From contig CM059432.1 of assembly GCA_030390025.1 (NCBI GenBank), forward strand, positions 98,396,001 through 98,460,000: a stretch of 64,000 nt of DNA. The letters run 5' to 3'. The position numbers and the translations under genes are program-made. Position 1 is the first letter of the stretch. Each line of letters opens with the position of its first letter. Origin of the DNA: Squalus acanthias (taxonomy: Eukaryota). The notes under the pieces were generated by a model. The model searched no databases. It had not been told where the DNA came from and saw only the letters and a program-made list of their open reading frames with translations. Below are positions 5,059-61,874 of the stretch, piece after piece.

Positions 5059-5830
5059 TGGCCCAGAAATTCGGGTCGGAGGCTTTCCGCGGGTGCAAGC
5101 ATAGCGGGTGCACTTACATAGCGCGCCTGCCATTGTGCTGTGGGCCCGCGTGGGATTCCGATCCTGGGCCTCCTCCAGCTGCTGGTGTGCAGTGCTTGTG
5201 TATCCCAGGGGCGCAGCTAGTTAGCAGCGTCCCCTGGGTTCACGTGGGCGTGGGCCATGGGGAGCCAATCGGAGCAGGGAATCTCCATTCATAGATTTGA
5301 CAGGAAGACCTGTCAAATCTATGAATACAGATCGGCCCCAAAACCTAAGTAAAACTTCAAATACATTTTTTAAAAAACATCACATTTTTTAAATAACTAT
5401 AAATTACATAAATTAACTACTTCAAACAAAAATTTTAATTTTTGAAAAAGTGTATTAAAGTTTTTAACAGGGCTAAAAATAAACTTACCTTTCTTTAAAG
5501 TATTTAAAAATGATAAACCTGTGGAAAAAATGTTTCAATTTTACTTAATTCACCTCTTACCTTGTTAAAAGCAAGCCTTGCGCCTGCTTTTTCTACGCGC
5601 AGCTGCTAGGGACTTACCCGCACGGAGAAACCTGTAAAAAAAGCCGAAGTTCGCTGCATACGCGCTGCCTCTCCCGTGCACGTGGTTGACCCGCGAACCC
5701 CTTCCTTTAAGAGACTGGAAGTTCCGGTTTCCCATGCATGGGCAGTGCATGCGCGAAACCGGCACTTCCTGTGGCCCTACGGGTGAGTACACATTGCGTA
5801 CTCACCCGTGGGGACCTGAATTTCTGGCCC
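5059..5830. mobile_element. Harbinger-type MITE
   Basis: TIR GGCCCAGAAATTC...GAATTTCTGGCCC with 3-bp TSD AAT; a partial homologue lies at 58388-58917. Confidence 0.7.
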
Positions 5831-14645: not shown

Positions 14646-16317
14646 ACGATAGCAAAATACTGCAGATGCTGGAAATCCGAAATAACAACAGAAAACGCTG
14701 GAAAAACTCAGCAGGCCAGGCAGCATCCGTGGAGAGAGAAAGAGAGTTGACGTTTCAGGTCGATGACCTTTCATCAGAACTGGGAAGAGCTGGAAATCAA
14801 ATAGATTTAAGGCCAGGGTAAAGCTGGGAAAAGGGGGAGGGGATAAAGGAACAAAGGAGGAGATGAAGAGACATTAAGAGACATTAAGAGATATGCAAGG
14901 CTAGAGGTGGTGTTAATGTGACAGATTAAGGCTGAATGAAGTGTGAAATCTACTGGCAGAATGAAGGACAGCTGCCAGCTTCTAGGAGGAAAAAAAGGTG
15001 GGGGGGACAAATAAAAGGGTAGATAAAATAAAATATAAATGTGATTGGAGCTGAGGTTATGATCTAAAATTGTTGAACTCGATATTGAGTCCAGAGGGCT
15101 GTAGCGTGCCTAAACGAAAGATGAGGTGCTGTTCCTCGAGCTTACGCTGAGCTTCCGTGGAACAGTGTATTAGGCCGAGGACGGTGAGGTCAGAGTGGGA
15201 GTGAAGCGGTGAATTAAAGTGACAGGCCACCGGGAGCTCGGGGTCCCCCTTACGGACTGAACGGAGGTGTTCCGCAAAGCGGTCACCCAATCTGCGTTTG
15301 GTCTCCCCAATGTAGAGGAGTCCACATCGTGAGCAGCGAATACAGTATACTAAATTGCAGGAAGTACAAGTAAATCGCTGTTTCACCTGGAAGGGGTGTT
15401 TGGGGCCCTGGACAGTGTGAAGAGGGGAGGTATAAGGGCATGTGTTGCATCTCCTGCGCGTGCATGGGAAGGTGCCGGGCGAAGGGGAAGGGGTGCTGGG
15501 GGTGGTAGAGGAGTGGACTAGGGTGTCGCGGAGGGAGCGGTCCCTGCGGAATGCTGAAAGGGGAGGTGAGGGGAAGATGTGTTTGGTGGTGGGATCACGC
15601 TGGAGGTGGCGGAAATGGCGGAGGATGATCCGTTGAATGTGGAGGCTGGTGGGGTGAAAGGTGAGGACAAGGGGAACCCTATCGTGGTTCCGGGAGGGAG
15701 GGGCAGGGGTGAGGGCAGATGTGCGGGAGATAGAACGGACACGGTCGAGGGCCGTGTCGACCACGGTAGAGGGGAATCCTCGGTTGAGGAAAAAGGAAGA
15801 CATGTCGGAAGCACTGGTATGGAAGGTGGCATCATCAGAGCAGATGCGGCGGAGACGGAGAAACTGGGAGAATGGAATAGAGTCCTTACAGGAGGCGGGG
15901 TGGGAGGAAGTGTAGTCCAGGTAGCTGTGGGAGTCGGTGGGCTTGTAGTGAATGTTAGTCAATAACCTATCCCCAGAGATGGAGATGGAGAAGTCGAGGA
16001 AGGGAAGAGAAGAGTCGGAGATGGACCATGTGAAGGTGAGGGAAGGGTGGAAATTGGAAGCATAGTGAATGAAATGTTCTAGTTCAGGGCGAGAGCAGGA
16101 GACGGCACCGATACAGTCATCAATGTACCGGAAAAAGAGGTGAGGGAGGGGACCCGAGTAGGACTGGAACAAAGAGTGTTCCACATATCCCACGAAAAGG
16201 CAGGCATAGCTAGGACCCATGCGGGTACCCATAGCAACACCTTTAATTTGGAGGAAATGGGTAGAGTCAAAGGAGAAGTTGTTCAATGTGAGAACAAGTT
16301 CAGCCAGGCGGAGGAGG
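14646..16317 (-). mobile_element. 5'-truncated Penelope-like element, family A (Neptune type)
   Basis: RT motifs GVAMGTRMGPSYA and RYIDD, Cys linker CTRRRCNTC, GIY-YIG VYCIRC...YIGET, terminal GLNIEF; TSD GTACTACAGTAAT at 14633-14645 and 16318-16330. Confidence 0.95.
14745..14781 (-). ncRNA. Minimal type I hammerhead ribozyme motif with GUC cleavage triplet
   Basis: Minus strand AGTT-CTGATGA-A-AGGTC-ATC-GACCT-GAAACG-TC-AACT. Confidence 0.85.
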
Positions 16318-18894
16318 GTACTACAGTAATCATGGGTGACTTTAATCCACATATAGACTGGCCAAACCAAATTAACAATAATACTGTGGAGGATGAATTC
16401 CTGGAGTGTGTACGAGATGTTTTTTTAGACCAGTACATTGAGGAGCCAACTAGTGAACAGGCTATCCTAGATTGGGTATTGTGCAATGAGAAGGGGTTAA
16501 TTAATAATCTTGTTGTGCGGGGTCCTTTAGGGAAGAGTAACCATAACATGATAGAATTCTTCATTAAGATGGAAAGTGAAGTAGTCCAATCCGAAACTAG
16601 GGTCCTAAATCTAAACAAAGGAAACTACGAAGGTATAAGTAGTCAGTTGGCTATGATAGATTGGGGATCTTCATTAAAAGGCATGATGGTGGATAGGCAA
16701 TGGCTAACATTTAAGGAATGAATGCATGAATTGCAACAGTTATACATTCCTTTCTGGTGCAAAAACACAAAAGGAAAAGCGGCCCAACCATGGCTAACAA
16801 AATAAATTAAGGATAGTATTCGATCCAAAGAGGAGTTGTATAAAGTTGCCAGAAAAAGAAGCAAGCCTGAAGATTGGGAACTATTTAGAGTTCAGCAAAA
16901 AAGGACCAAGAGATTGATTAAGAGGGGAAAAATAGAGTATGAGAGTAAACTTGCAAGGAACATAAAAGCAGACTGTAAAAGCTTCTACAAGTATGTAAAA
17001 AGAAAAAGATTAGTGAAGACAAATATAGGTCCCTTACAGCCAGAAAAGGGAGAATTTATAATGGGGAACAAGGAAATGGCTGAGCAATTAAACAAATACT
17101 TTGGTTCTGTCTTCATGGAAGAGGACACAAATAACTTTCCGGAAATGCTAGGGAACCAAGAGTCTAGTGAGAAGGAGGAATTAAAGGAAATTAGTATTCA
17201 TAAAAAAATAGTGCTGGAGAAATTAATGGGACTGAAAGCCGATAAATCCCCAGGGCCTGATAATCTGTATCCCAGAGTACTAAAAGAGGTAGCCATGGAA
17301 ATAGTGGATGCATTGGTTGTCATCTTCCAAAATTTTATAGATTATGGAACAGTTCCTGCAGATTGGAGGGTGGCAAATGTAACCCCACTATTTAAAAAAG
17401 GAGGGAGAGAGAAAACAGGGAACTACAGACCGGTTAGCCTAACATCAGTAGTAGGAAAAATTCTAGAGTCTATTATAAACGATATGATAACAGGACACTT
17501 AGAAAACATCAACGGGATTAGACAAAGTCATCATAGATTTATGAAAGGGAAATCGTGTTTGACAAACCGACTGGAGTTTTTTGAGGATGTAACTGGTAGA
17601 ATAGATAAGGGAGAACCAGTGGATGTGGTGCATTTGGATTTTCAGAAGGCCTTTGATAAAGTCCCACAGAAGAGGTTAGTGTGTAAAATGAAAGCACATG
17701 GGATTGGGGGTAATATACTGGCATGGATTAAAAATTGGTTAACAGACAGGAAACAGAGAGTAGGAATAATTGGGTCTTTTTTGGGATGGCAGGCGGTGAC
17801 TAGTGGGGTACCACAGGGATCAGTGCTTGGGCCTCAGCTATTCACAATATATATCAATGATTTGGATGAGGGAACCAAATGTAATATTTCCAAGTTTGCT
17901 GATGACACGAAACTAGGATGCAAAGAGGCTTCAAGGCGATTTAGACAAGTTGAGTGAGTGGAAAAATACATGGCAGATGCAGTATAACGTGAATAAAGGT
18001 GAAGTTATCCACTTCGGTAGGAAAAACAGAAAGGCAGAGTATTATTTAAATGGTGATAGATTGGGAAATGTTGATGTACAAAGGGACCTGGGTGTTCTTG
18101 TACACCAGTCACTGAAAGCAAACATGCAGGTGCAGCAAGCAGTTAGGAAGGCAAATGGTATGTTGGCCTTCATTGCAAGAGGATTTGAGTGCAGGAGCAA
18201 GGATGTCTTACTACAGTTATACAGGGCCTTGGTGAGACCACACCTGGAGTACTGTGTGCAGTTTTGCTCTCCTTACCTAAGAAAGGATCTACTTGCCATA
18301 GAGAGTGTGCAGCGAAGGTTCACCAGACTGATTCCTGGGATGGCAGGACTGTCGTATGAGGAGAGATTGGGTCGAATAGGCCTGTATTCACTAGAGTTTA
18401 GAAGAATGAGAGGGGATTTCATTGAAAAGGTATAAAATTCTGACAGGACTAGGCAGACTGGATGCAGGGAGGATATTTCCCCTGGCTGGGGGTTCTAGAA
18501 CGAGGGGTCACAGTCTCAGGATATGGGGTAGGGCATTTAGGACTGAGATGAGGAGTAATTTCTTCACTCAGAGGGTGGTGAACCTGTGGAATTCTCTACC
18601 ACAGAAGGCTGTGAAGGCCAAGTCACTAAATATATTTAAGAAGGAGTTAGATAGATTTCTAGACACAAAAGGCATCAAGGGGTATGGGGAGAGAGCAAAA
18701 ATGTGGTATTGAGATAGAGAATCAGCTATGATCATATTGAATGGCAGAGCAGGCTCGAAGGGCCGAATGGCCTACTCCTGCTCCTATTTTTCTATGTTTC
18801 TGTGTTCTATGTTTCTAGAGGACCAGAGTAAATAACTGAAACAACAAAATCAAGGCAAAATGGGAAAATCAAAACAAAAGTGCTACATGGAGAA

Positions 18895-28180: not shown

Positions 28181-28415
28181 AATAACAACAGAAAATGCTG
28201 GAAACACTCAGCAGGTCAGGCAGCATCCGTGGAGAGAGAAAAGCAGAGTTAACGTTTAAGGTCGATGACCCTTCGTCAGCATTCTGACGAAGGGTCATTT
28301 ACCTGAAACATTAACTCTGTTTCTTTCTCCACGGATGCTGCCTAACCTGCTGAGTGTTTCCAGCATTTTCTGTTGTTATTTCAGATTTCTAGCATCTGCA
28401 GTATTTTGCTATTGT
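28181..28415. mobile_element. ORF-less palindromic Penelope pLTR element (family A) with back-to-back degenerate hammerheads
   Basis: Inverted arms of about 100 bp centred on TCGTCAG-CATT-CTGACGA; TSD ACACTTTAAAAATA at 28171-28184 and 28416-28429. Confidence 0.85.
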
Positions 28416-40259: not shown

Positions 40260-41952
40260 AGTGGCAGGGTGTTGGGAATCTGAGCAGGGAGACAGAGGAA
40301 AGGGAAACAAGGATAAAAGCTAAAGACAGGAAGGAGAAAAACAAAAGTAGAAGGCAGAGAACCCAACGGTTTAAATCAAACATGGTCACAGTAAATAACA
40401 ATTCATATAGGTCTGAGAGCGTTAAAAAAACAAGCCTGATTGTGTCTTAATGCAAGGAGCATTCAGAACAAGGTGGATGAATTAGCTGCGCAAATAGAGG
40501 TAACTGAATACGATTTGATTGGGATTACAGAAACATGGCTCCAGGGTGGCCAAGGCTGGGAACTCAACATCCAGGGTTATTCAATATTTAGGAAAGATAG
40601 GCAAAAAGAAAGGGAGGTGGGGTAGCATTGCTGGTTAAAGAGGGGATTAACACAATTGAAAAGAAGGATATTAGCTCTGATGATGCGGAATCTGTATGGG
40701 TAGAACTGAGAAATAACAAGGGGCAGAAAACGTTAGTGGGAGTGGTATATAGACCTCCAAACAGTAATACGTAGGTTGGGGACGGCATTAAAAGGAAAAT
40801 TAGAGAAGCGTGCAGTAAGGGCACAGCAGTCATCATGGGTGACTTTAATTTACATATAGATTGGGCTAACCAAATTAGTAAAAATACTGTGGAGGAGGAA
40901 TTCCTAGAATGTTTACGGGATGGTTTTCTGGAACAATATGTCGAGGAACCAACCAGAGATCAGGTCATCTTAGACTGAGTATTATGTAACAAGAAAGGAT
41001 TAATTAGCAATCTTGTTGTATGAGGCCCCTTGGGTCAGAGTGATCATAATATGATAGAATTCATCATTAGGATGGAGAGTGAAGTAGTTGAATCAGAGAC
41101 TAGGGTCCTGAATTTAAATAATGGAAACTATGATGGTATGAGGCGCGAATTGGGTAGGATTGATTGGGGAATGTCACTCAAGGGGTTGACGGTGGATAGG
41201 CAATGGCAAACATTCAAAGACTGCATGGATGAACTACAGAATTTGTTCATCCCAGTGTGGCATAAGAATAAAACAAAAAGGGTGACTCAACCATGGCTAA
41301 CAAGGGTAATTAGGGATAGCATAAGATTCAAGGAGAGGGCATATAAATTGACCAGAAAAAGCGGTAACCCTGAAGATTGGGAGCAGTTTAGGATTCAACA
41401 AAGGAGGACAAAGGGATTAATTAAGAAGGGGAAATAGAATGTGAAAGTAAGCTTGCTGGGAACATAAAAACTGACTGTAAGAGCTTTTATAGATATGTGA
41501 AGAGAAAAAGATTAGTGAAATCAAGTGTAGGTCCCTTGCAGTCAGAAGCGGGGGAAGTTATAATGGGGAACAAAGAAATGACTGACCAATTAAATGCATA
41601 TTTTGGTTCTGTCTTCACAAAGGAGGACACAAATAACCTCCCAGAGATGTTGGAGACCATACGGTCTGATGAAAGGGAGGAACTGAAAGAAATCAGTATT
41701 TGCAGGGAAATGGTGTTAGGGAAATTGACGGGATTGAAGGCCGATAAATCCCCAGGGTCTGATAATCTACATCCTAGGGTACTTAAGGAAGTGGCCCTAG
41801 AAATAGTAGATGCATTGCTGATCATCTTCCAACATTCGATGGAATCTGGAACTGTACCCATGGATTGGAGGGTAGCTAATGTTACCCCACTATTCAAAAA
41901 GGGTGGTAGTTAGAAAGCGGGGAATTACAGACCGGTAAGCCTGACATCGGTA

Positions 41953-43236
41953 GTGGGGAAAATGCCAGAGTCCATTATAAAGGATGTAATAGCTGAGCAC
42001 TTGAAAAACAGTGACAGGATCGGACAAAGTCAACATGGATTTACAAAAGGTAAATCGTGCTTGACTAATCTACTGGAATTTTTTGAGGATGTAACTGGGA
42101 AAATAGATAAGGGAGAACCAGTAGATGTGGTGTATTTGGACTTTCAAAAGGCTTTCGATAAGGTCCCGCATAAGAGATTAGCATGTAAAGTTAAGGCACA
42201 TGGGATTGGGGGCAAGGTATTGACTTGGATAGAGAACTGGTTGGCGGACAGAAAGCAGAGAGTAGGAATTAATGGGTCTTTTTGCGAGTGGCAAGCAGTG
42301 ACTAGTCGGGTACCGCAGGGATTGGTCCTTGGATCCCAGCTATTCACAATATACATTAATGATCTAGATAAGGGAACTAAATGTAATATCTCCAAGTTTG
42401 CAGATGACACAAAGCTGGGTGGGAGTGTTTGCTGCGAGGAGGATACCGAGAAACTCCAGGATGATTTGGACAGGTTGGGTGAGTGGGCAGAAGCGTGGCA
42501 GATGCAATATAACGTGGATAAATGCGAGGTTATCCACTTTGGTGTCAAAAACAGAAAGGCAGACTATTATCTGAATGGCAATAGATTGGGAGAAGGGGAA
42601 GTGCAACGAGACCTGGGTGTCCTTGTGCACCAGTCGCTGAAGGTAAGCATGCAGGTGCAGCAGGCGGTGAAGAAGGCAAATGGTATGTTGGCCTTCATAG
42701 CGAAAGGGTTTGAGTATAGGAACAGGGATGTCCTGCTGCAGTTGTACAGGGCCTTGGTGAGACCACACCTTGAGTACTTTGTGCAGTTTTGGTCGCCTTA
42801 TCTGAGGAAGGATGTTCTTGCCATTGAAGGAGTTCAGCGAAGATTCACCAGACTGATACCTGGGATGGCAGGAATGACATATGAGGAGAGATTGGGTCGA
42901 TTGGGCTTATACTCGCTGGAGTATAGAAGAATGAAAGGGGATCTCATCGAAACACATAAAATTCTGACAGGTCTGGACAAACTAGATGCAGGAAGAATGT
43001 TCCTGATGGTCGGAGAGTCCAGAACCAGGGGTCATAATCTAAGGATAACGGGTAAGCCATTTAGGACAGAAATGAGGAAGAATTTCTTCACCCAGAGAGT
43101 GGTGAACCTGTGGAATTCTCTACCACAGAAGGTAGTTGAGGCCAAGTCATTAAATATATTCAAGAATGAGTTAGATATATTTCTTAAAGCTAAAGGTATC
43201 AAGGGATATGGGGAGAAGGCAGGTACAGGGTACTGA
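41953..43236 (+). pseudogene. CR1 ORF2 reverse-transcriptase segment
   Basis: [33 protein letters not shown]; upstream ORF2 is disrupted. Confidence 0.9.
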
Positions 43237-43833
43237 GTTTGGATGATCAGCCATGATCTCATCGAATGGTGGAGCAGGCTCGAGGGGCCGAATGGCCTAC
43301 TCCTGCTCCTATCTTCTATGTTTCTTCTGTTTTTCTATGTTTCTGCTTTGAATCAAATTGGAGTACACTATGTTTCTACACTGGATTACACTGTAACTGC
43401 TGTGTCTCTATCTTTGAAAAGGTAAAAATCTTTTTACCTTTAAACTTCTGGCTGTGTGTCAGCTGAACTGGTTCTACTGGTTTTTCAGCTCTGCTGGATT
43501 CTAGGTAGCAGCTGCTGCTCCACTTGCTGTCCGGTGACTCGTTCTTATGGTTTTCAGCTTTGCTGGTCATTGGTTTATGGTTTTATTTTTTCTCCGCCGC
43601 TTTAGAAACACAGAAACAGAGAAGATAGGAGCAGGAGTAGGTCATTCAGCCCCTCGAGCCTGCTCCGCCATTCAATGCGATCATGGCTGATCATCCAAAT
43701 TCAGTACGATAGCAAAATACTGCGGATGCTGGAAATCCGAAATAACAACAGAAAACGCTGGAAAAACTCAGCAGGCCAGGCAGCATCCGTGGAGAGAGAA
43801 AGAGAGTTAACGTTTCAGGTCGATGACCTTCCC

Positions 43834-43870
43834 AGTTCTGATGAAAGGTCATCGACCTGAAACGTTAACT
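43834..43870 (+). ncRNA. Minimal type I hammerhead ribozyme motif (5' pLTR)
   Basis: AGTT-CTGATGA-A-AGGTC-ATC-GACCT-GAAACG-TT-AACT; palindromic ACGU stem III; GUU triplet. Confidence 0.85.
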
Positions 43871-44005
43871 CTCTTTCTCTCTCCACGGATGCTGCCTGGC
43901 CTGCTGAGTTTTTCCAGCGTTTTCTGTTGTTATTTCGGATTTCCAGCATCCGCAGTATTTTGCTATCGTATTAGTGTTTGGTTCACTGCCACCACTCTTC
44001 TTGGA

Positions 44006-46756
44006 ATGCCTACCTTGAAGAAGTTCTGCTCTTCTCTTCGACGAGATTTCCGTTTGGCTCTTCAACCTTGTTCATCTTCATTGATTTCAGTTTCCCTTCT
44101 CGTGTTTGATCAGATATCTGCCAAGACTCGGTTTCACAGCCACATTACTTTCCTCAGCAACTGTCTCCGGTTCCGACTTATCCCACGTGGATTCCAACTA
44201 AACTTCCACCCTTCGTGTTTCGGATCCACCCAGGATTACAAATATCTCCAAGATATTCATCGTTCCTCGAACTACTGCTCTCGCCGCATCTTGAGATCCA
44301 CGCTCAACGCCATGCGGCGCCACATGAACACTCTCGACATCTCTCTTCAGCAGCACCGACGCACTCTATCTCAAAGCTGTCCGGGTCCACAGTTCCATTT
44401 CATCCTTAGACTCATCCGACGCTTCAACAAAAAACTTTTCTTCTTCCTTTCCGATGTCAAGGATCGCAAGCTTCAACAACTCTTGGACACTAAAGCCCCT
44501 CCGGAACCTTCTTCCCCTTCACTTTCCTCTGACCCCCCTTCTCCCAATCTCACCCCCTGCCGCGTTTTCACTATCCCCTCTGACCTTCCCCTCTCTGACT
44601 CCGAATGATCAGTCCTCAGCAAAGGCCTGAGCTTCATCCCCTTACGCCCCCATCTCAATGAATTTCGAGCTCGGCACGATGCTGAGCTCTTTTTCCGCCG
44701 CCTCCGTCTCCGTGCCCACTTCTCTGGCCAGGAGTCTTCCCCCCGCACGGCTGACCCTTTCTCCCGCTTTCAGAATTCTCATTCCACCTGGACCCCTCCC
44801 TCTGGCCTCTTACCCTCTCTTGATCTTTTCATTGCTAACTGCCGCCGTGACATCGGCCAGCTCAATTTCTCTGCTCCCCTCACTCACTCCAACCTACCTC
44901 CCTCTGAACTTGCAGCACTCCATTCTCTCCGATCCAACCCTGACATTGTCATTAAACCTGCTGACAAGGGTGGCGCTGTTGTTGTTTGGCGAACCGACCT
45001 CTACCTAGCGGAAGTTGAACGCCAACTCTCCGACACCTCCTCCTACCTCCACCTGGACCATGACCCCACTACCGAACATCAAGCCACCGTGTCCAAGACT
45101 GTCACTGACCTCATCTCCTCTGGAGATCTTCCCCCCACGGCCGCCAACCTCATAGTTCCCCAACCCCGCACAGCCCGCTTCTACCTCCTTCCCAAGATCC
45201 ACAAACAGGACTGCCCCGGTAGACCCATCGTTTCAGCCTGTTCTTGCCCCACAGAACTTATCTCTTCCTATCTCGACTCTATTTTTTCTCCCCTTGTCCA
45301 GTCTCTTCCCACCTACATCCGCGACTCTTCCGATGCCCTCCGCCATTTTAACAGTTTCCAGTTTCCCGGCCCCAACCGTCTCCTCTTCACTATGGACGTA
45401 CAATCCCTCTACACCTCCATTCCCCACCAGGATGGCCTGAGGGCGCTCCGCTTCTTCCTTGAACAGAGGCCCAACCAGTCCCCATCCACCACCACCCTCC
45501 TCCGCCTGGCTGAACTTGTTCTCACATTGAACAACTTCTCCTTTGACTCTACCCATTTCCTCCAAATTAAAGGTGTTGCTATGGGTACCCGCATGGGTCC
45601 TAGCTATGCCTGCCTTTTCGTGGGATATGTGGAACACTCTTTGTTCCAGTCCTACTCGGGTCCCCTCCCTCACCTCTTTTTCTGGTACATTGATGACTGT
45701 ATCGGTGCTGTCTCCTGCTCTCGCCCTGAACTAGAACATTTCATTCACTATGCTTCCAATTTCCACCCTTCCCTCACCTTCACATGGTCCATCTCCGACT
45801 CTTCCCTTCCCTTCCTCGACTTCTCCATTTCCATCTCTGGGGATAGGTTATTGACTAACATTCACTACAAGCCCACCGACTCCCACAGCTACCTGGATTA
45901 CACTTCCTCCCACCCCGCCTCCTGTAAGGACTCTATTCCATTCTCCCAGTTTCTCCGTCTCCGCCGCATCTGCTCTGATGATGCCACCTTCCATACCAGT
46001 GCTTCCGACATGTCTTCCTTTTTCCTCAACCAAGGATTCCCCTCTACCGTGGTCGACACGGCCCTCGACCGTGTCCGTTCTATCTCCCGCACATCTGCCC
46101 TCACCCCTGCCCCTCCCTCCCGGAACCACGATAGGGTTCCCCTTGTCCTCACCTTTCACCCCACCAGCCTCCACATTCAACGGATCATCCTCCGCCATTT
46201 CCGCCACCTCCAGCGTGATCCCACCACCAAACACATCTTCCCCTCACCTCCCCTTTCAGCATTCCGTAGGGACCGCTCCCTCCGCGACACCCTAGTCCAC
46301 TCCTCTACCACCCCCAGCACCCCTTCCCCTTCGCCCGGCACCTTCCCGTGCATGCGCAGGAGATGCAACACATGCCCTTATACCTCCCCTCTTCCCACTG
46401 TCCAGGGCCCCAAACACCCCTTCCAGGTGAAACAGCGATTTACTTGTACTTCCTGCAATTTAGTATACTGTATTCGCTGCTCACGATGTGGACTCCTCTA
46501 CATTGGGGAGACCAAACGCAGATTGGGTGACCGCTTTGCGGAACACCTCCGTTCAGTCCGTAAGGGGGACCCCGAGCTCCCGGTGGCCTGTCACTTTAAT
46601 TCACCGCTTCACTCCCACTCTGACCTCACCGTCCTCGGCCTATTACACTGTTCCACGGAAGCTCAGCGTAAGCTCGAGGAACAGCACCTCATCTTTCGTT
46701 TAGGCACGCTACAGCCCTCTGGACTCAATATCGAGTTCAACAATTTTAGATCATAA
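44006..46756 (+). pseudogene. PLE RT-GIY-YIG polyprotein, 916 codons with a single premature stop at 44606-44608
   Basis: ORFs 43823-44608 and 45089-46756 share a frame; manual translation across the gap is open (SVLSKGLSFIP, IKPADKGG); then LPKIHK, DVQSLYTSI, YIDD, Cys linker, GIY-YIG; start ATG is inferred. Confidence 0.9.
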
Positions 46757-47033
46757 CCTCAGCTCCAATCACATTTATATTTTATTTTATCCACCCTTTT
46801 ATTTGTCCCCCCCCACCTTTTTTTTCCTCCTAGAAGCTGGCAGCTGTCCTTCATTCTGCCAGTGGATTTCACACTTCATTCAGCCTTAATCTGTCACATT
46901 AACACCACCTCTAGCCTTGCATATCTCTTAATGTCTCTTAATGTCTCTTCATCCCCCCCTTTGTTCCTTTATCCCCACCCCCTTTTCCCAGCTTTACCCT
47001 GGCCTTAAATCTATTTGATTTCCGGCTCTTTCC

Positions 47034-47070
47034 AGTTCTGATGAAAGGTCATCGACCTGAAATGTTAACT
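47034..47070 (+). ncRNA. Minimal hammerhead ribozyme motif (3' pLTR; stem III CG to TG change)
   Basis: AGTT-CTGATGA-A-AGGTC-ATC-GACCT-GAAATG-TT-AACT. Confidence 0.75.
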
Positions 47071-47306
47071 CTCTTTCTCTCTCCACGGATGCTGCCTGGC
47101 CTGCTGAGTTTTTCCAGCGTTTTCTGTTGTTAATCCAAATTCAGTACCCTGTCCCTGCCTTTTCCCCATATCCCTTGATCCCCTGAGCCCTAAGAAATAT
47201 ATCTAACTCCTTTCTTGAATATATTTAATGAATTGGACTCAACTGCCTTCTGTGGTAGAGAATTCCACAGGTTCACCACTCTCTGGGTGAAGAAATTCCT
47301 CCTCAT

Positions 47307-48924
47307 TGTAGAATTCGCAATATATCGCGATTTTATTAATAAGGAGAAGAACACTTAGTTTCGTTCAAACAGCTTTTATTTCAGCAGAATGCTGACAGGT
47401 TTTCAAAGTGGACACAAGCAGCTTGTAAAATGGCCGCCGCGCCTCGTGGCGGAACATTCTAGACTTTTCGACAGGCAGACAAGATGGCGTTCCAGTAAAC
47501 ATTTGTGCAAGATCGATTAAGACTCAGCACATTTAAGATAATACACGAGACATCATGGGTTTACAGTATACACATAAATACTGAAATCGGTCTCCCAGGT
47601 GCGAATAAGGGCTATTGTACCAAGTAATCAAGAACCCATCCAAAGACATTAATATGTAAAATCCCAACGACTCTACGATGAGAGAGCCGTTAGCGGGTAG
47701 TTACAGAAAACACTTGGAAGCCCCAAAACCCCTCCAGGGAGAACACCGACCGATTAAACAATGGGAGAAATATTAACAGGTACTCAGACAATTACGAGTA
47801 GCCCCGAAACCCATTAAAACGGAGATCACCCTATACAAGACATTTGAGCGCCAAACCCTAACAAAAGAAAAGACATTAAGGTTGGGCGGGAAACGGAAGA
47901 TTTTGCACTATAATTGCAAGCTCCAAACCGTCCATCTCTCTCTTATCCTCGTGGCTGCTCCTGTGCTCTTATCCTCTTATTCGGTTGACTCTTATCCTGC
48001 TGGTGTTTATCCTCGTGGCTGCTCTTGACTCGCCGTCTTGTTCCTGTTTGATGAACTGGGCTCTGAAGCCTTGAAGCGGGCGCACCATCCCGATAAGTCG
48101 GTAAACGGTGTTGGAACCGAAGGCCCGAGATGAGATGAGATGAGATGAGAAGAGAAGAAGACCATACTTATCGCCACGGTCAGTAAGCTCCGACCGCGCC
48201 TGTAGGTCGAATAGACATTTTCCTTGCCAGGAAGATTATTCTTCGAATTTTATCGTACCTGTGCGAGGGCACAGGAAGACTCTTTTTTGAGTAGAGTCGG
48301 AACTCCGAGGACAACACAGATCTTCATGACAGCAGACGTTCCAGCCTGCTAGCCGGAGCAGAAACGAGTAAACAAGTGGGGCCAGGAGACCCCCTGATCG
48401 ACACGTGGGTGCTGCGGTGAAAAACATCCGATCAGAGTTTTCGGAATTCTCCGAGTTATCACGAGTGGTGAGCATGAGTCTCGAATCCTACGAATCTAGC
48501 TTAGGACAGATATTGATAGGGGAGGGTTTTAAGTATTAAGGATAATTGTAATGTGTGCCCCCATTTACGATGTGTCGTTCGTTGCTCGTTTCCCTGAAAT
48601 TAATTACATAACTGCGTGTAAGATTGTACTGTCATTAATCTGTGCTTATGACATGTATTTCGTAATCTTAAATATTATGCAATAAAGATTTTCCATTTCG
48701 TACCATTCAACCGAGTCTACCTGAGTTTCATCTCCATTACTGCTCTCGCATCTAAGTCCAGTGTCTAGAACCGTAAGGGCGAGTGGGTCGAACCACTCAC
48801 AGGTGTCTAGTGCTCCCAGGCTGGCTGGAGACCAGAACAGGCAACAAGGCCTAAACTCGCACTAGCATCCAGGCTGCACAGAGCCACACGAATCTCACAG
48901 GCTGAGAGACAAAAAACCCTTACA
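47307..48924 (+). mobile_element. Solo-LTR-like element copy 2 (divergent subfamily, 1618 bp)
   Basis: TGTAG...TTACA termini with TSD TCAT; collinear with copy 1 but diverged. Confidence 0.85.
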
Positions 48925-49503
48925 TCATCTCAGTCCTAAATGGCTTACCCCTTATCTTTAGACTGTGACCCCTGGTTCTGGACACCCCTGCCATCAGGAA
49001 CATCCTTCCTGCATCTAGTTTGTCTAGTCCTGTTAGAATTTTATAAGTTTCAATGAGATCCCCTCTCATTCTTCTAAACGCTAGCGAATACAAGCCCAAT
49101 CGACCCAATCTCTCTTCATACGTCATTCCTGCCATCCCAGGTATCAGTCTGGTGAATCTTCGCTGCACTCCCTCCATGGCAAGAACATCCTTCCTCAGAT
49201 AAGGCGACCAAAACTGCACACAGTACTCAAGGTGTGGTCTCACCAAAGCCCTGTACAACTGCAGCAAGACATCCTTGCTCCTGTACTCGAATCCTCTCAC
49301 TATGAAGGCCAACATACCATTTGCCTTCTTAACCGCCTGCTGCACCTGCATGCTTACCTTCAGCAACTGGTGCACAAGGACACCCAGGTCTCGTTGCACT
49401 TTCCCTTTTCCCAATCTATTGCCATTCAGATAATAATCTTCCTTCCTGTTTTTGCCCCCAAAGTGGATAACCTCGCATTTATCCACATTATACTGCATCT
49501 GCC

Positions 49504-51129
49504 TGTAAGGGTTTGGCAAACGTGTCTCTCAGAGACGGTGCTGGTGCGAGGTTAGGCCTTCGTTGCCTAATACTATTGCTTGCTCTGGTCTCCGGCCAGC
49601 CCTTTTGCAATAAGCACCTGTGAGTGGTTCGACCCACTCGCCCTTACGGTTCTAACACTGGACTTAGGTGCAGGGAGCAGTAATGCAGAGAAAACTCAAA
49701 TAGACCCGATTGAATAGTACGAAATGGAAATCTTTATTGCATAGCATCCAAAATCATGAAGTACATGTCATAGGCGCAAATTAACGAGAGTACAAGTATA
49801 CATACATTCATAAAGCTTGGTCTATGGAAATGAAGAACACACGGCACATCGTAGAAAGGGGAACACATTATCTCTTAGCCTTATTAAAACCACCCTCCCT
49901 TAACAATACCTACACTACGTCTAGATTTGTAGGATCAGAAAACATGCTCACCACTCGTGTTACTTCAGAGATTTTTAAAGTGAGGCACTCGGCTCGTTTC
50001 GCTGCAGCGCCTGACTGTCACGTGTTTGGAAGGGTCTCTGTACCCCACTTGTTTATTTTCGCTGCTGCGACAAGCAGGCCAGGCTCCCTGTTGTCATGAA
50101 GAACTCGACAGAACTCGGACACAGTTCAAAGAAGAGTCTTCCTGTGCCCGACACCGGTTGTCGGGAGACTTCAATGAAAGGTTCTTTCTTATATTTTCGG
50201 GCGCGGTCGGGGTTTACTGACCGTGGCGGCACGTGGATTCTTCTCCTTTTCTTCTTGTCTCGTCTCGTCTCTTCGGGCCTCTGGGTCCAGACACCGTTTA
50301 CCGACACTCGGGATGGTGCACCCTGCTACTTGCCCTTGTCGGGGCGGCTCGTTCCGATTGAGCTCCACCCAACATTCGAATAACCGACCAGTACGGCTAA
50401 AAGTCAAGAGTCAACAACGTCCAGAGAGAAAATCAAAAGCTCACCAGTCAAGCGAGTCCATGAAGAGGCAGGCGAATAAGAGACCGATGGACATTTGTTC
50501 ACTATAGTTATAGTGCTGTGTTCCCTTATCTCCCGCTCAAATCTTAATGTTTGTCCTTTGTGTAATATTGGCACTCAAAAACTCCCAGCATGGGGCGATT
50601 CTTCTCTTTAACGGGTTTCGGTAGCACCTGAAACTGGCCAACTATCCATTAATGTTTTCCCCATTGTTGACCCAGCCAGGATGTGTACGAATCGTCTCCC
50701 TGACTGGTTTTGGGGCCCCCCGAATACTTGCTTAATCACCCGTCAATGTCTCGCTCATTGTAGAGCCGGGGGGGTATTTGTGTATTGATGTGTCTGGATG
50801 GGCCTTCGATTGCCCAGTACAATGATCCTTACTTGTGCATGGAAAACGATTCCAGCACTTATATCTTTGCTATTGTTCCAAATGCAAACAGGTTGCATCC
50901 TGTCTTTATCAATGTTTACCGAGTATGATCCAATCTTATATTGAATGTTTATTCGACGCCATCTTGTCTGCCCACTGTGTTTCTGGAAGCTTCTGCCACG
51001 ATGTGCGGCGGCCATTTTACAGGCTTCTGTGTCCTTTATTATCAGGACAGACTTTCGTTTAATAAAACTGATCAAACGAATCTGCTTCTATCTTGTTATT
51101 TTGAATCGCGATAATTGCGAAACTTTACA
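49504..51129 (-). mobile_element. Solo-LTR-like element copy 3 (1626 bp)
   Basis: Reverse-complement homologue of copy 1; TGTAA...TTACA; apparent 3-bp duplication GCC. Confidence 0.85.
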
Positions 51130-53939
51130 GCCATGCATCTGCCCAATCGTCCAACCTGTCCAAATCATACTGGAGTTTGTCTGCATCCTCCTCACAGCAC
51201 ACACGCCCACCCAGCTTTGTGTCGTCTGCAAACTTGGAGATATTACATCTAGTTCCCTCATCTAGATCATTAATATATATATATTGTGAATAACTGGGGT
51301 CCTAGCACCGATCCCTGCGGTACCCCACTAGTCACTGCCTGCCACTCAGAAAAAGACCCATTTATTCCAACTCTTTGCTTCCTGCCTGCCAACCAGTTTT
51401 CTATCCAAGTCAGTACCTTACCCCCAATCCCATGTGCTTTAACTTTGCACGCTAATCTCTTATGCGGGACCTTATCAAAAGCCTTCTGAAAGTCCAAATA
51501 CACCGCATCCACTGGTTCTCCCTTATCTATTCTACAAGTTAGATCCTCAAAGAATTCCAGTAGATTAGTCAAGCATGATTTACCTTTTGTAAATCCATGT
51601 TGACTTTGTCCGATCCTGTCACTGTTTTCCAAGTGCTCTGCAATTGCATCTTTTATAATGGACTCTAGCATTTTCCCCACTACCGATGTCAGGCTTACCG
51701 GTCTATAATTCCCCGTTTTCTCTCTACCACCTTTTTTAAATAGTGGGGTTACATTAGCTAGTCCTCCAATCCATGGGAACTGTTCCAGAGTCTATAGAAT
51801 TTTGGAAGATGACCAGCAATGCATCTACTATTTCTAGGGCCACCTCCTTATGTACCCTAGGATGTAGATTATCAGGCCCTGGGGATTTATCGGCCTTCAA
51901 TCCCGTCAATTTCCCTAACACCATTTCCTTACAAATATTGATTTCATTCAGTTCCTCCCTCTCATTAGATCCTGTGTTCCCCAACATCTCTGGGAGGTTA
52001 TTTGTGTCCTCCTTTGTGAAGACAGAACCAAAGTATGTATTTAATTGGTCTGCCATTTTTTTGTTCCCCATTATAAATTCCCCTGATTCTGACTGCAAGG
52101 GACCTACGCTTGTCTTCACCAACTTTTTCTCTTCACATATCTATGGAAGCTTTTACAGTCAGTTTTTATGTTCCCTGCAAGCTTTCTCTCATACTCTATT
52201 TTCCCCCTCTTAATTAATCCCTTTGTCCTCCTTAGCTGAATCTTAAACTGCATCCAATCCTCAGGTTTGCTGCTTTTTCTGGCCAATTTATATGTCCTCT
52301 CCTTGGATCTTATGCTATCCCTAATTTCCCTTGTTAGCCACGGTTGAGTCACCTTTTTTGTTTTATTTTTATGCCAAACAGGGATGAACAAATTCTGTAG
52401 TTCATCCATGCGATCTTTAAATGTTTGCCATTGCTTATCCACCGTCAACCTTTTAAGTAACGTTCCCCAATCCATCCTAGTAAACACGCGCCTCATACCA
52501 TCGTAGTTTCCTTTATTTAAATTCAGGACCCTAGTCTCTGATTCAACTACTTCACTCTCCATCCTAATGAAGAATTCTATCATATTATGATTGCTCCTCC
52601 CCAAGGGTCCTCGCACAAAAAGATTGCTAATTAATCCTTTCTCATTACATAATACCCAGTCTAAGATGGCCTGATCTCTAGTTGGTTCCTCGACATATTG
52701 GTCCAGGAAACCATCCCGTATACACTCTTGGAATTCCTCCTCCACAGTATTGTTACTAATTTGGTTAGCCCAATCTATATGTAGATTAAAGTCACCCATG
52801 ATAACTGCTGTGCCCTTATTGCACACGTCTCTAATTTCCCATTTAATGCCATTCCCAACATCAGCATTACTGTTTGGGGGTCTGTATACAACTCCCACTA
52901 ACGTTTTCTGCCCCTTGGTATTTCTCAGCTCTACCCATACAGATTCCACATCATCAGAGCTAATATCGTTCCTTACTATTGTATTAATCTCCTCTTTAAC
53001 CAGCAATGCTACCCCACCTCCTTTTCCTTTTTGCCTGTCCTTCCTGAATATTGAATACCCCTGGATGTTGAATTCCCAGCCTTGGTCACCCTGGAGCCAT
53101 GTCTCCATAATCCCAATTCTATCATATCCGTTTACATCTATTTGCGCAGCTAATTCATCCACCTTATTATGAATGCTCCTCGCATTAAGACACAGAGCCT
53201 TCAGGCTTGTTTTTTTAATGCTCTTAGATCATTTAGAATTATTGTTTACAGTGGCCATGTTTGATTTACACCCTTGATTTCTCTGCCTTCCACTTTTGCT
53301 TTTCTCCTTCCTGTCTTTTGTTTCTCTCCTTGCTTCCCTTTCCTCTGTGTCCCTGCACAGGTTCCCAACCCCCTGCCATTTTAGTTTATACCCTCCCCAA
53401 CAGCACTAGCAAACACTTCCCCTAGGACATCGGTCCCGGTCCTGCCCAGGTGCAAACCGTCCAGTTTGTACTGGTCCCACCTCCCCCAGATCCTGAGATT
53501 ACTACCTTTGAGGTCCTATTTTTTAATTTACCTCCTAACTCTCTATATTCAGCTTTTAGGACCTCATCCCGTTTTTTACCTATATCGTTGGTACCTATAT
53601 GCACCACGACAACTGGCTGTTCACCCTCCACCTCCAGATTGCTCTTCAGCCGCTCCGAGACATCCTTGACCCTTGCACTAGGGAGGCAACATACCATCCT
53701 GGATTCTCGTTTGCGGCCGCAGAAACGCCTATCTATTCCCCTTACAATAGAATCCCCTATCACTATAGCGCTCCCGCTCTTTTTCCTCCCGCCCTGTGCA
53801 GCAGAACCACCCATGGTGCCAGGAAGTTGGTTGCTGCTGCCTTCCCCCGATATCCAAAGTGGTATATCTGTTTGAGAGGGGGGTGGCCACAGGGGACCCC
53901 TGCACTACCTGCCTGTGCCTACTACTCTGCCTGGCTTTG

Positions 53940-61584: not shown

Positions 61585-61747
61585 GCGGAGATGCCGGTGT
61601 TGGACTGGGGTGGACAAAATTGAGAGGTCGCACAACACCAGGTTATAGTCCAACTACTTCACCTGAGGAAGGGGCGATCGATAGCTCCGAAAACTTGTGA
61701 TTTCAAATAAAACTGTTGGACTATAACCTGGTGTTGTGCAACCTCTC
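61585..61747. mobile_element. ORF-less palindromic Penelope pLTR element (family B) with a hammerhead motif
   Basis: Arms TTGAGAGGTCGCACAACACCAGGTTATAGTCCAAC / GTTGGACTATAACCTGGTGTTGTGCAACCTCTCAA; TSD AATTTAAATGAA at 61573-61584 and 61748-61759; same pLTR as 2212-2300. Confidence 0.8.
61659..61700 (+). ncRNA. Hammerhead ribozyme motif (stem III degenerate)
   Basis: TCAC-CTGAGGA-A-GGGGC-GATCGATA-GCTCC-GAAAAC-TT-GTGA. Confidence 0.65.
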
Positions 61748-61874
61748 AATTTAAATGAATGCAGTGTTGACGCAGCACTTAATGCACTGCTAAGTGGCTT
61801 AATACCTCAGCAGGGGGCCCAAGTTTGTGCGAGGCTAGCACCACTTAAAGCTAGCCTCGCACAAACTTGCTAAA

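Follow-up and report, generated by a model that had tools for sequence, protein, structure and literature searches.

Does a Penelope-like element (PLE) that carries a hammerhead ribozyme near each end use the pair to release the RNA from which it is copied, or does it insert from a transcript that was never cut? The question is raised by an element found in a 64,000-nt stretch of DNA (hereafter, the window), for which a sequence-only reading had proposed that the two hammerheads could pair within one transcript and excise a possibly circularisable RNA of 3200 nt, which would make it a reconstructable self-processing unit. As an idea this is not new: dimer folding, paired hammerheads about 3 kb apart, unit-length excision and a circular intermediate are already proposed in the 2014 hammerhead survey (PMC4209133), whose Table S1 includes many PLEs with 5' and 3' hammerheads, among them coral Neptune and fish Poseidon and Xena. 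The reading favoured here, to which we give a probability of about 70%, is that the copy arose from an uncut linear template through a two-cDNA insertion and decayed later, its hammerheads being real but off the main insertion path.

The element, at 43705..47132, is a recently inserted, slightly decayed Neptune-type PLE copy, full-length and now non-coding, in a genome of cartilaginous-fish type, and it is built, together with its insertion site, of the following parts:

43603..43707, minus strand: distal portion of the 3' end of the host CR1-type LINE (it matches at 90% the CR1-type copy found at 41901-43340)
43693..43707, plus strand: left target-site duplication (TSD), 15 bp, identical to 47133-47147 and overlapping the end of the inverted arm by 3 nt
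43705..43830, minus strand: inverted 5' arm, the reverse complement of 43845-43970 (3' part of the pseudo-LTR plus tail)
43828..43932, plus strand: 5' pseudo-LTR (pLTR), 105 nt, a direct repeat of 47028-47132
43834..43870, plus strand: 5' minimal type I hammerhead (34 bits, independent covariance model)
43933..43970, plus strand: "tail" of about 38 nt, lying between the family's two 3' end sites, the short one at 43932/47132 and the long one at 43969-43970
46757..47027, plus strand: pyrimidine-rich 3' UTR, read from the sequence and also present in copy 2
47028..47132, plus strand: 3' pLTR, which reaches as far as the short 3' site, 66 nt past the predicted cut
47034..47070, plus strand: 3' minimal hammerhead (28 bits), predicted cut after 47066
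47133..47147, plus strand: right TSD, 15 bp
47133..47307, minus strand: host CR1-type LINE, proximal part (92% match)

Both hammerheads lie, as had been claimed, on the same strand and 3200 nt apart, inside direct repeats of 105 nt each that differ at two positions, and the insert measures exactly one 3200-nt unit plus 105 nt. The exactness of the 3200 nt carries no meaning of its own, since a second copy in the window has 2 nt fewer in its 3' UTR. The inverted arm matches its 126-nt complement with 100% complementarity, meets the main body head-to-head with a 3-nt microhomology at the joint, and is predicted to form with it a single hairpin (-250 kcal/mol, z -41). The flanks, which belong to a LINE that we take to be a CR1 from the look of its protein (the copy at 41901-43340 gives an RVT_1 match, E 3e-30), fuse into a single 3' end that overlaps by exactly the 15 bp of the TSD. 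The sequence-only reading had overlooked this arm and this TSD, as well as the second copy, two lost arginines and a change at 47063. These features are real but ordinary: direct and inverted pLTRs, an optional tail of 30-40 bp and a variable TSD make up the layout of EN+ PLEs, called "typical Penelope structure" in PMC3846280 and also drawn in Fig. 2 of Craig et al. The element Pen2a_Av of Adineta vaga (PMC3846280) likewise combines two direct pLTRs with an adjacent, slightly shorter inverted one, a TSD and a tail that is optional, and its ORF too is interrupted by an in-frame stop, although its pLTR is of 218 nt (105 here) and its TSD of 9 bp (15 here), and, unlike it, the pLTR here excludes the probable ORF start.

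What the element encodes, and what it has lost, can be read from four further features:

44006..46756, plus strand: single RT + GIY-YIG ORF, 916 codons plus stop, with one internal TGA
44606..44608, plus strand: nonsense codon TGA, private to this copy, an arginine codon in family copies (CpG decay)
45683..45685, plus strand: Trp replacing arginine directly before YIDD (homologue comparison)
46031..46033, plus strand: Gln replacing a conserved arginine in the thumb/linker region (homologue comparison)

The frame broken by one TGA had been described correctly, and its suspected origin from CGA by a CpG mutation agrees with the contigs of the family, where the codon is CGA, with C at 44606 in 88% of the depth in run X1 (61 contigs; this run may be a sample of the window's own origin) and in 100% and 83% in runs X15 and X17 (4 contigs each; their RNA nature is only a guess). 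Homologues have R or K at this codon in 13 of 16 non-gap rows; read-through as selenocysteine, as in some Naiads, was rejected on the grounds of both the arginine codon of the family and these residues. Copy 2 retains both of the lost arginines. The one before YIDD is also present in 21/21 homologues and 98% of the X1 depth, and the one in the thumb/linker region in 20/20 non-gap homologues and 82% of that depth. Pfam matches are weak (RVT_1, E 1.2e-4; GIY-YIG, E 5e-4; both under the curated cut-offs), and neither a PDB sequence search nor NCBIfam returned anything. Despite these matches and the private stop, the organisation is that of an EN+ PLE: one ORF with RT and, at its C terminus, GIY-YIG, a DKG (44963) upstream of the RT core with its motif C YIDD (45686), and a CCHH motif formed by the CxxC between GIY and YIG (46460) and by histidines downstream. 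The long RT-EN linker holds, about 28 residues before the GIY motif, a C-X4-C-xx-C (46349) of the Zn-finger-like CX2-5CxxC type, a motif that is absent in Penelope/Poseidon, while the Nematis linker is reduced (Craig et al.). Compared by eye, the linker resembles the Neptune rows of Craig's Fig. S2, unlike those of Poseidon and Nematis, the CxxC inside GIY-YIG also has its counterpart in the Neptune rows, and Neptune1_Ap, as given in the published text, looks very close to the homologue P0017. The earlier assignment to Neptune, a group that is itself paraphyletic (Craig et al.), is thereby supported and would rest on these linker and GIY-YIG motifs; among named proteins, those nearest to it come from sharks and rays (66-73% identity). 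The ATG at 44006 is the probable start, 139 nt downstream of the 5' predicted cut, and is preferred to two other ATGs in the same frame, 43841 and 43889, because the homologue P0004 begins with the same MPTL. A start at 43841, inside the hammerhead core as in the Poseidon element PAc, was not favoured either, since relatives often have CUGACGA or CUGAAGA there and homologues start at the position that corresponds to 44006.

Are the hammerheads themselves genuine? A strict descriptor finds three motifs in the window and none in 200/200 shuffles, and a covariance model trained on 11 motifs, all from outside the window, gives the 5' motif 34 bits (rough E 1e-7) and the 3' motif 28 bits (rough E 7e-6), which together argue against chance. 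The suggested check with covariance models recovered them with this model and not with Rfam, which gave 0 matches at the gathering threshold over the window, with no hammerhead match, and only two chance matches (E 2-3) around the 3' motif; the Rfam library misses minimal hammerheads. The motifs of the window have the invariant core CUGANGA...GAAA...NUH and helices I and II. The 5' motif comprises a helix I of 4 bp, a core at 43838-43844, a bulged A between 9 and 10.1, a helix II of 5 bp, a helix III that is a loopless palindrome (15.2-16.2 included) and a GUU triplet; the cuts predicted from this triplet, after 43866 and 47066, agree with those given before.

Conservation among relatives, on which the earlier claim also depended, is found for the catalytic core and the palindrome, both strongly kept in distant relatives, and 7 of 10 stem pairs vary on both sides (score 0.726; 0/500 shuffles; slid controls <=0.156), with the pairing partly produced by construction, as the rows were picked by a stem-requiring descriptor and several come from one family. 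The GUC triplet and the invariant core are kept by most relatives (15/17 matches). The same motif lies about 100 nt past the ORF in 13/80 metagenome loci (1 match in 20 shuffles of all loci), and a strict count in another set of loci gives 10/33, a relaxed count of 24/33 being set aside for want of a shuffle control. The nearest published counterpart is the Neptune of Acropora digitifera, described in PMC4209133 (Table S1 and Fig. S3), where a Neptune-type ORF likewise lies between two pLTR hammerheads, 3033 nt apart, with a bulged base before helix II and a loopless palindromic helix III; its motif is identical in sequence to motifs beside the protein relatives of the present element (L013 and others). 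Unlike it, our element has a shark-type host, an A-U rather than a G-C pair at 10.1-11.1, a GUU triplet in both motifs, a 5-bp helix II and a 4-bp helix I.

Such conservation bears on whether the hammerhead might be a passenger, without a role for the autonomous element and kept by pLTR-derived, retrozyme-like mini-elements that use it. Craig et al. raise parasitic hammerheads as a possibility; animal non-LTR retrozymes, also reported in one chondrichthyan genome, have type I hammerheads derived from pLTRs, as here (bioRxiv 10.64898/2026.07.22.740005), and internally deleted derivatives of our family, joining about 44108 to 46881-46968, appear in three runs. Retrozymes are, however, short non-coding tandem repeats, as opposed to the autonomous-type single insertion seen here (bioRxiv 10.64898/2026.07.22.740005), and the hammerhead occupies the equivalent place in relatives that carry the ORF and whose proteins share only about 45-58% identity, so that we regard this explanation as very improbable.

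In this shark-type family the cleavage position is a U, and the G10.1-C11.1 pair is replaced by A-U in the three rows of the family, against G-C in 12/16 rows. Both kinds of change slow hammerhead cleavage. That pair is termed highly conserved, not invariant, in PMC4209133, which also describes the dimer activity of minimal hammerheads as low; of nine retrozyme dimers from Xenopus, eight showed no cleavage in vitro (bioRxiv 10.64898/2026.07.22.740005). In the present copy, the palindromic helix III that had been described stands in the 5' motif and is broken in the 3' motif by a private C>T at 47063, which leaves a U-G wobble where family contigs have C in 72-91% of the depth. Pairing of the 5' with the 3' helix III is computed at -2.3 kcal/mol, versus -4.1 for two intact palindromes. 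Furthermore, in a read-in RNA the 5' hammerhead is predicted to fold inside the 126-bp hairpin, with pair probabilities of 0 for helices I and II. In unconstrained cofolding, the minimum-energy state is not the dimeric hammerhead and the strands of helix II swap, an outcome that was not counted because energy models leave the hammerhead core unscored.

The ends of the insertions also bear on the question, and two further insertions related to the main element lie in the window:

14646..16317, minus strand: copy 2, 5'-truncated, with pLTR and tail, a GUC-type hammerhead and a 13-bp TSD
28185..28415, no strand assigned: fold-back element of two inverted pLTRs only, about 88% to this family, 14-bp TSD

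Copy 2 is 98.7% identical to the main element over 1639 nt (22 differences) and terminates, like the inverted arm and the fold-back element, at the equivalent of the long 3' site (43969-43970), and family contigs have loose ends at 43964-43977 and at 47132. The main insert spans both predicted cuts, with 36-39 nt ahead of the 5' one and 66 nt past the 3' one, and its template was therefore either uncut or re-ligated. Each of the window's three pLTR-internal 5' junctions (43828-31, ~28282 and ~61659) maps to the 5' strand of helix I or a little upstream of it, and that strand also holds the centre of inversion of the fold-back element. Run X1 contains 77 contigs whose flanks ahead of 47035 are heterogeneous and 133 with loose letters ahead of 47029, a pile that perhaps comes partly from a sister subfamily with a different 3' UTR (agreement 0.6), and no loose ends at the cut (47067) appear among the best-supported rows listed; run X21, raw DNA reads of another organism, comprises 38 reads. 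The position of these junctions is not universal, since the inverted arms of invertebrate relatives end at varied places (128-600 nt). As a separate observation, a splice acceptor (pyrimidine tract plus AG) is possible at the 5' strand of helix I in this element, comparable to that of D. virilis Penelope (PMC4209133); such a sequence is missing from the second family of the window and from most relatives.

An uncut linear template fits best an insert that runs over both cuts and 5' junctions that lie upstream of helix I. A re-ligated template would instead be a circle: the two hammerheads of one transcript would pair via helix III, excise and ligate the 3200-nt RNA, and internal priming followed by slightly more than one lap (3200 + 105 nt) would give an insert with two pLTRs. 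This would account for the insert length, for a start located so that the excised unit retains the whole ORF, and for the conservation of core and palindrome, and circles of non-coding retrozymes do exist (PMC5680766). Circles are endless, yet second-lap stops are concentrated where helix I has its upstream edge, and the low dimer activity of minimal hammerheads weighs against it too. A joint of 47132 to 43933, considered as evidence of circles, was rejected: it is also present in a DNA run, and its short side (<=39 nt) is tail only. We consider the circle unlikely, and about equally so its extension in vivo to a dimer switch, in which the palindromes of the 5' and 3' pLTRs would pair, release and re-ligate a 3.2-kb whole-ORF coding circle as template and, by the same pairing, position the second priming that forms the inverted arm. 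For this copy, the excision proposed before finds little support, given the insert's reach past both predicted cuts, the buried 5' motif, the weakened helix III duplex, the 5' junctions upstream of helix I and the two lost arginines.

The experimental reference, and the one PLE tested, is PAc, the Poseidon of Anolis carolinensis (PMC11167929), likewise an EN+ PLE of a vertebrate, in which the pLTR carries a hammerhead, two internal 3' end sites flank a tail and both strands are used. Hammerhead mutants left the insertion of PAc in vitro unaffected, and RNA-seq showed no ends at the cut, which also counts against the circle. PAc differs in belonging to a clade that lacks the linker Zn-finger and in being cut 26 nt inside the ORF rather than before the probable start, and its cleavage is demonstrated and protein-assisted, whereas here it is predicted. 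Under the uncut-template reading, transcription of a master copy would begin near the upstream edge of the 5' hammerhead and run across the ORF and the 3' pLTR, and the RT-GIY-YIG protein would nick both target strands 15 nt apart, the length of the observed TSD. Reverse transcription would be primed internally at two fixed sites, 66 and ~103 nt past the hammerhead cut, the ends being observed and the mechanism taken by analogy with PAc. One cDNA of 3305 nt would reach the 5' boundary of the RNA and the other would stop after 126 nt, and their 3' ends, presumably united via the 3-nt microhomology seen at the junction, would create the inverted arm, a route that implies a template intact at both hammerheads. 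On this reading the hammerheads are real, selected motifs which, as is established for the family, would show activity only in dimeric form or when aided by protein; most likely their cleavage is weak and stands outside the main route of insertion, for instance trimming or retiring read-through and tandem transcripts, and an obligatory 3.2-kb excised or circular template is most likely not their product. After insertion, the nonsense codon, the loss of two invariant arginines and the helix III mutation would have accumulated, mostly through CpG decay.

There are counterpoints to the uncut template. The window offers only three junctions, PAc is a Poseidon and not a Neptune, and the strong conservation of core and palindrome implies selected catalysis or dimer pairing, so the role of the hammerheads may be larger. 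One such role, a reading that arose in this analysis, would be that the self-complementary helix III serves chiefly to bring together two pLTRs, from one RNA or from two, in the RNP, where two RTs prime at two nicks and the fold marks the 5' boundary of the RNA, cleavage being incidental. Head-to-head junctions in or beside the hammerhead (3/3 cases in the window) agree with it, as do the GUU triplet, which lengthens the palindrome to 6 bp (-4.1 versus -3.1 kcal/mol for GUC/GUC), and the PAc protein, a predicted dimer that cuts and extends both strands (PMC11167929). A 6-bp duplex is nevertheless weak, most relatives retain GUC and the core, and Naiads form inverted arms without canonical hammerheads (Craig et al.), which makes it quite unlikely.

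The words "shark" and "Callorhinchus" do not occur in the supplement file of PMC4209133, and the literature searched, with most subscription journals and Repbase outside its coverage, holds neither a full-length PLE circle nor an account of the shark family. The locus adds one well-preserved example of a published architecture, from a lineage unnamed, as far as that file goes, in the 2014 survey. The main copy itself, with damage to its 3' palindrome and its protein, is ill suited to settling the role of PLE hammerheads, but its young and abundant family, with sharp ends, is a good substrate for it. The dimer switch, if true, would mean that a circular coding intermediate had been demonstrated for the first time in an autonomous retrotransposon of the PLE class in a vertebrate.

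The main element, a Neptune-type Penelope-like retroelement (PLE), carries, as the sequence-only reading had described, two same-strand hammerhead motifs; each lies within one copy of a 105-nt direct repeat (the pseudo-LTR, pLTR). The repeats differ by two mismatches (43831/47031 and 43863/47063), the second of which puts a G-U wobble into the 3' motif's palindromic helix III; C stands at 47063 in 72-91% of depth in family contigs. The 3200-nt spacing, to which that reading had drawn attention, is measured but has no special value, being simply the unit length, from which a second copy (copy 2) departs by 2 nt.

Main-family features in the window
43834-43870, same strand as the 3' motif: 5' hammerhead motif, within direct repeat 43828-43932
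47034-47070, same strand as the 5' motif: 3' hammerhead motif, within direct repeat 47028-47132
43693-43707 and 47133-47147: 15-bp target-site duplication (TSD), enclosing the entire insert
14646-16317, minus strand: copy 2, 5'-truncated, 13-bp TSD
28185-28415: fold-back element of pLTRs only, 14-bp TSD

The sequences flanking the 15-bp TSD reunite as a single LINE 3' end, presumably CR1. CR1-type pieces are numerous (41901-43340, 17410-18817, 48925-51731 and others), some of them 90-92% alike, and the copy at 41914-43236 retains a 440-codon open RT frame. The insert opens at its 5' end with a perfectly matched inverted arm of 126 bp (43705-43830 versus 43845-43970), which a 3-nt microhomology joins to the body. 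Copy 2 is 98.7% identical to the main element (22 differences over about 1640 nt), and members of the family end at either of two 3' sites, 43932/47132 and 43969-43970, with a tail of about 38 nt between them. In element orientation, the TSDs of both ORF-bearing copies (43693-43707 and 16318-16330; n = 2 only) share an initial AT and a terminal AGTAC, a pattern absent from that of the fold-back element.

A strict descriptor detected three motifs in the window, while each of 200 shuffles yielded zero. Rfam returned no hammerhead match for the window motifs, whereas a covariance model trained on 11 hammerheads, all from outside the window, ranked the main family's four motifs first (36, 34, 28 and 22 bits, with rough E-values), ahead of two motifs from a second PLE family. 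A GUU triplet is present in both motifs of the main copy, against GUC in copy 2, and C is the final base in 15 of the 17 hits among relatives; unlike most relatives, the main family has A-U at 10.1-11.1. Both this pair and the GUU triplet may slow hammerhead cleavage. Among 80 metagenome loci retained from 432 confirmed relatives, 13 carry the same motif (17 hits, versus a single hit when all loci were shuffled 20 times), typically 90-140 nt past the ORF, and 10 of the 33 having a C-terminus and sufficient downstream sequence show the strict core. Aligning 16 motifs (four from the window and 12 from loci, L035 being excluded) gave two-sided changes in 7 of 10 pairs and a score of 0.726, versus at most 0.156 for slid pairings; since the rows were chosen by a stem-requiring descriptor and several come from one family, this appears supportive of the hammerhead helices without being independent evidence. 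Invertebrate-associated relatives (L013, L017, L035, L058, L004 and L066) share the inverted 5' arm, which often contains an additional, opposite-strand hammerhead.

The ORF (44006-46756) comprises 916 codons plus stop and is broken, as first read, by a single TGA (44606-44608). It encodes DKG, RT motifs A-C, a long linker with C-X4-C-xx-C and a GIY-YIG domain with an internal CxxC; 8000 scored candidates yielded 1102 homologues, of which the closest with names come from sharks and rays (66-73% identity). In the part of Craig et al. (PMC8557442) consulted, Neptune and Nematis have the linker finger and Penelope/Poseidon lack it, and the linker length, compared by eye, fits the Neptune rows of its supplement. 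Four runs were compared over 43933-47200, namely three contig sets (X1, a DNA run possibly from the same sample as the window, X15 and X17) and one raw set of 38 reads, the variant figures coming from 40 of 307 variant rows (36 annotated). C occupies 44606 in 88% (X1), 100% (X15) and 83% (X17) of depth, which confirms the claimed CpG origin of the TGA from CGA. "Near-intact" holds as regards the single frame break, yet the damage goes beyond the stop codon, because annotated variants at 45683 (the arginine immediately preceding YIDD) and 46032 replace arginines conserved in 21/21 and 20/20 homologue rows. The frame is also open upstream to an ATG within the hammerhead core (extension 43841-44005; 971 codons in all); PAc, the Poseidon PLE of Anolis carolinensis, likewise has an ATG within its hammerhead, but the core ATG of the main element is not conserved among relatives.

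The insert starts 36-39 nt upstream of the predicted 5' cut and ends 66 nt downstream of the 3' one; as it reaches past both, a doubly cleaved linear RNA is ruled out as template of the main copy, which was uncut or re-ligated. Two primings may have produced it, one giving the 3305-nt body and the other the 126-nt arm, with limited generality, the arms of invertebrate relatives (128-600 nt) ending at other places. All three pLTR-internal 5' junctions in the window lie at the helix I 5' strand or just upstream; X1 shows heterogeneous flanks before 47035 in 77 contigs and loose letters before 47029 in 133, a group that may include a sister subfamily, and no contig end at the predicted cut was found among the X1 matches listed (2344 further rows exist). 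Such a fixed stop at the upstream edge of helix I is expected if the RNA starts there and not on a circular template. It speaks against a circular template, and we consider the circle or dimer-switch reading improbable. Two points favour the circle: the insert measures one unit length with 105 nt added, and the ORF probably starts downstream of the predicted cut. The joint of 47132 to 43933, present in X1 (12 contigs), X15 and X17, was rejected as evidence of circles: it occurs in a DNA run and its reach (at most 39 nt) covers the tail only, equally fitting tails, tandems or full-length 5' ends. In an upstream read-in transcript of the main copy, the 5' motif is buried in a hairpin (predicted -250 kcal/mol), and the predicted 5'-3' helix III duplex has -2.3 kcal/mol versus -4.1 for two intact palindromes.

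For PAc, the portion of PMC11167929 consulted reports reverse transcription beginning at two internal sites that delimit the tail, cutting and extension of both target strands, normal in vitro insertion of hammerhead mutants, protein-dependent hammerhead cleavage, and no RNA-seq ends at the cut. A pyrimidine tract at 47010-47035 ends in CAG, overlapping the helix I start, and resembles D. virilis Penelope, whose intron end, in the partial account consulted, maps to helix I; the forward arm of the fold-back element begins directly after the AG of such a tract. Internally deleted derivatives in X1, X15 and X17, with 44108 joined to 46881, 46914 or 46968 (each joint backed by a single contig in each run), retain roughly 280 nt from the 5' end together with the pLTR in units of about 340-430 nt, and are candidate non-autonomous, retrozyme-like elements.

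The second, distant PLE family (40% identity in the endonuclease end) is represented by a 5'-truncated minus-strand copy at 2212-2803, with a 13-bp TSD (2199-2211 and 2804-2816). This copy carries a hammerhead of its own near 2262-2296, with a palindrome in helix III that differs in sequence from that of the main family. A fold-back mini-element of this family (61621-61748) has a 34-nt inverted arm whose junction coincides with the upstream boundary of helix I of the hammerhead; a search for an exact TSD around it found none.

In the parts of these publications consulted, minimal hammerheads occupy both pLTRs of PLEs, with fish Xena, Poseidon and Neptune named, their dimer activity is low, and excision and circularisation had already been proposed (Cervera and De la Pena 2014, PMC4209133); a coral Neptune there, with motifs at 5228 and 2195, carries one identical to those beside metagenome relatives of the main element. 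Likewise, the typical Penelope structure has the same layout, including an in-frame stop (Arkhipova et al. 2013, PMC3846280), and a 2026 preprint (bioRxiv 10.64898/2026.07.22.740005), whose supplements may include the main family, places pLTR-derived retrozymes in a chondrichthyan and reports cleavage of Xenopus retrozyme dimers in only 1/9. Neither the main family nor a full-length circle of any PLE is the subject of a paper in the literature searched, which left out Repbase and most subscription journals. The original observation is confirmed. Its interpretation is partly supported, in that the element is a Neptune-type PLE with genuine minimal hammerheads and a stop codon of CpG origin, and is not original as regards excision and circularisation. 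The main element adds one member to the published PLE architecture; the circle or dimer-switch reading, if true, would deserve markedly more attention than the element as it stands.
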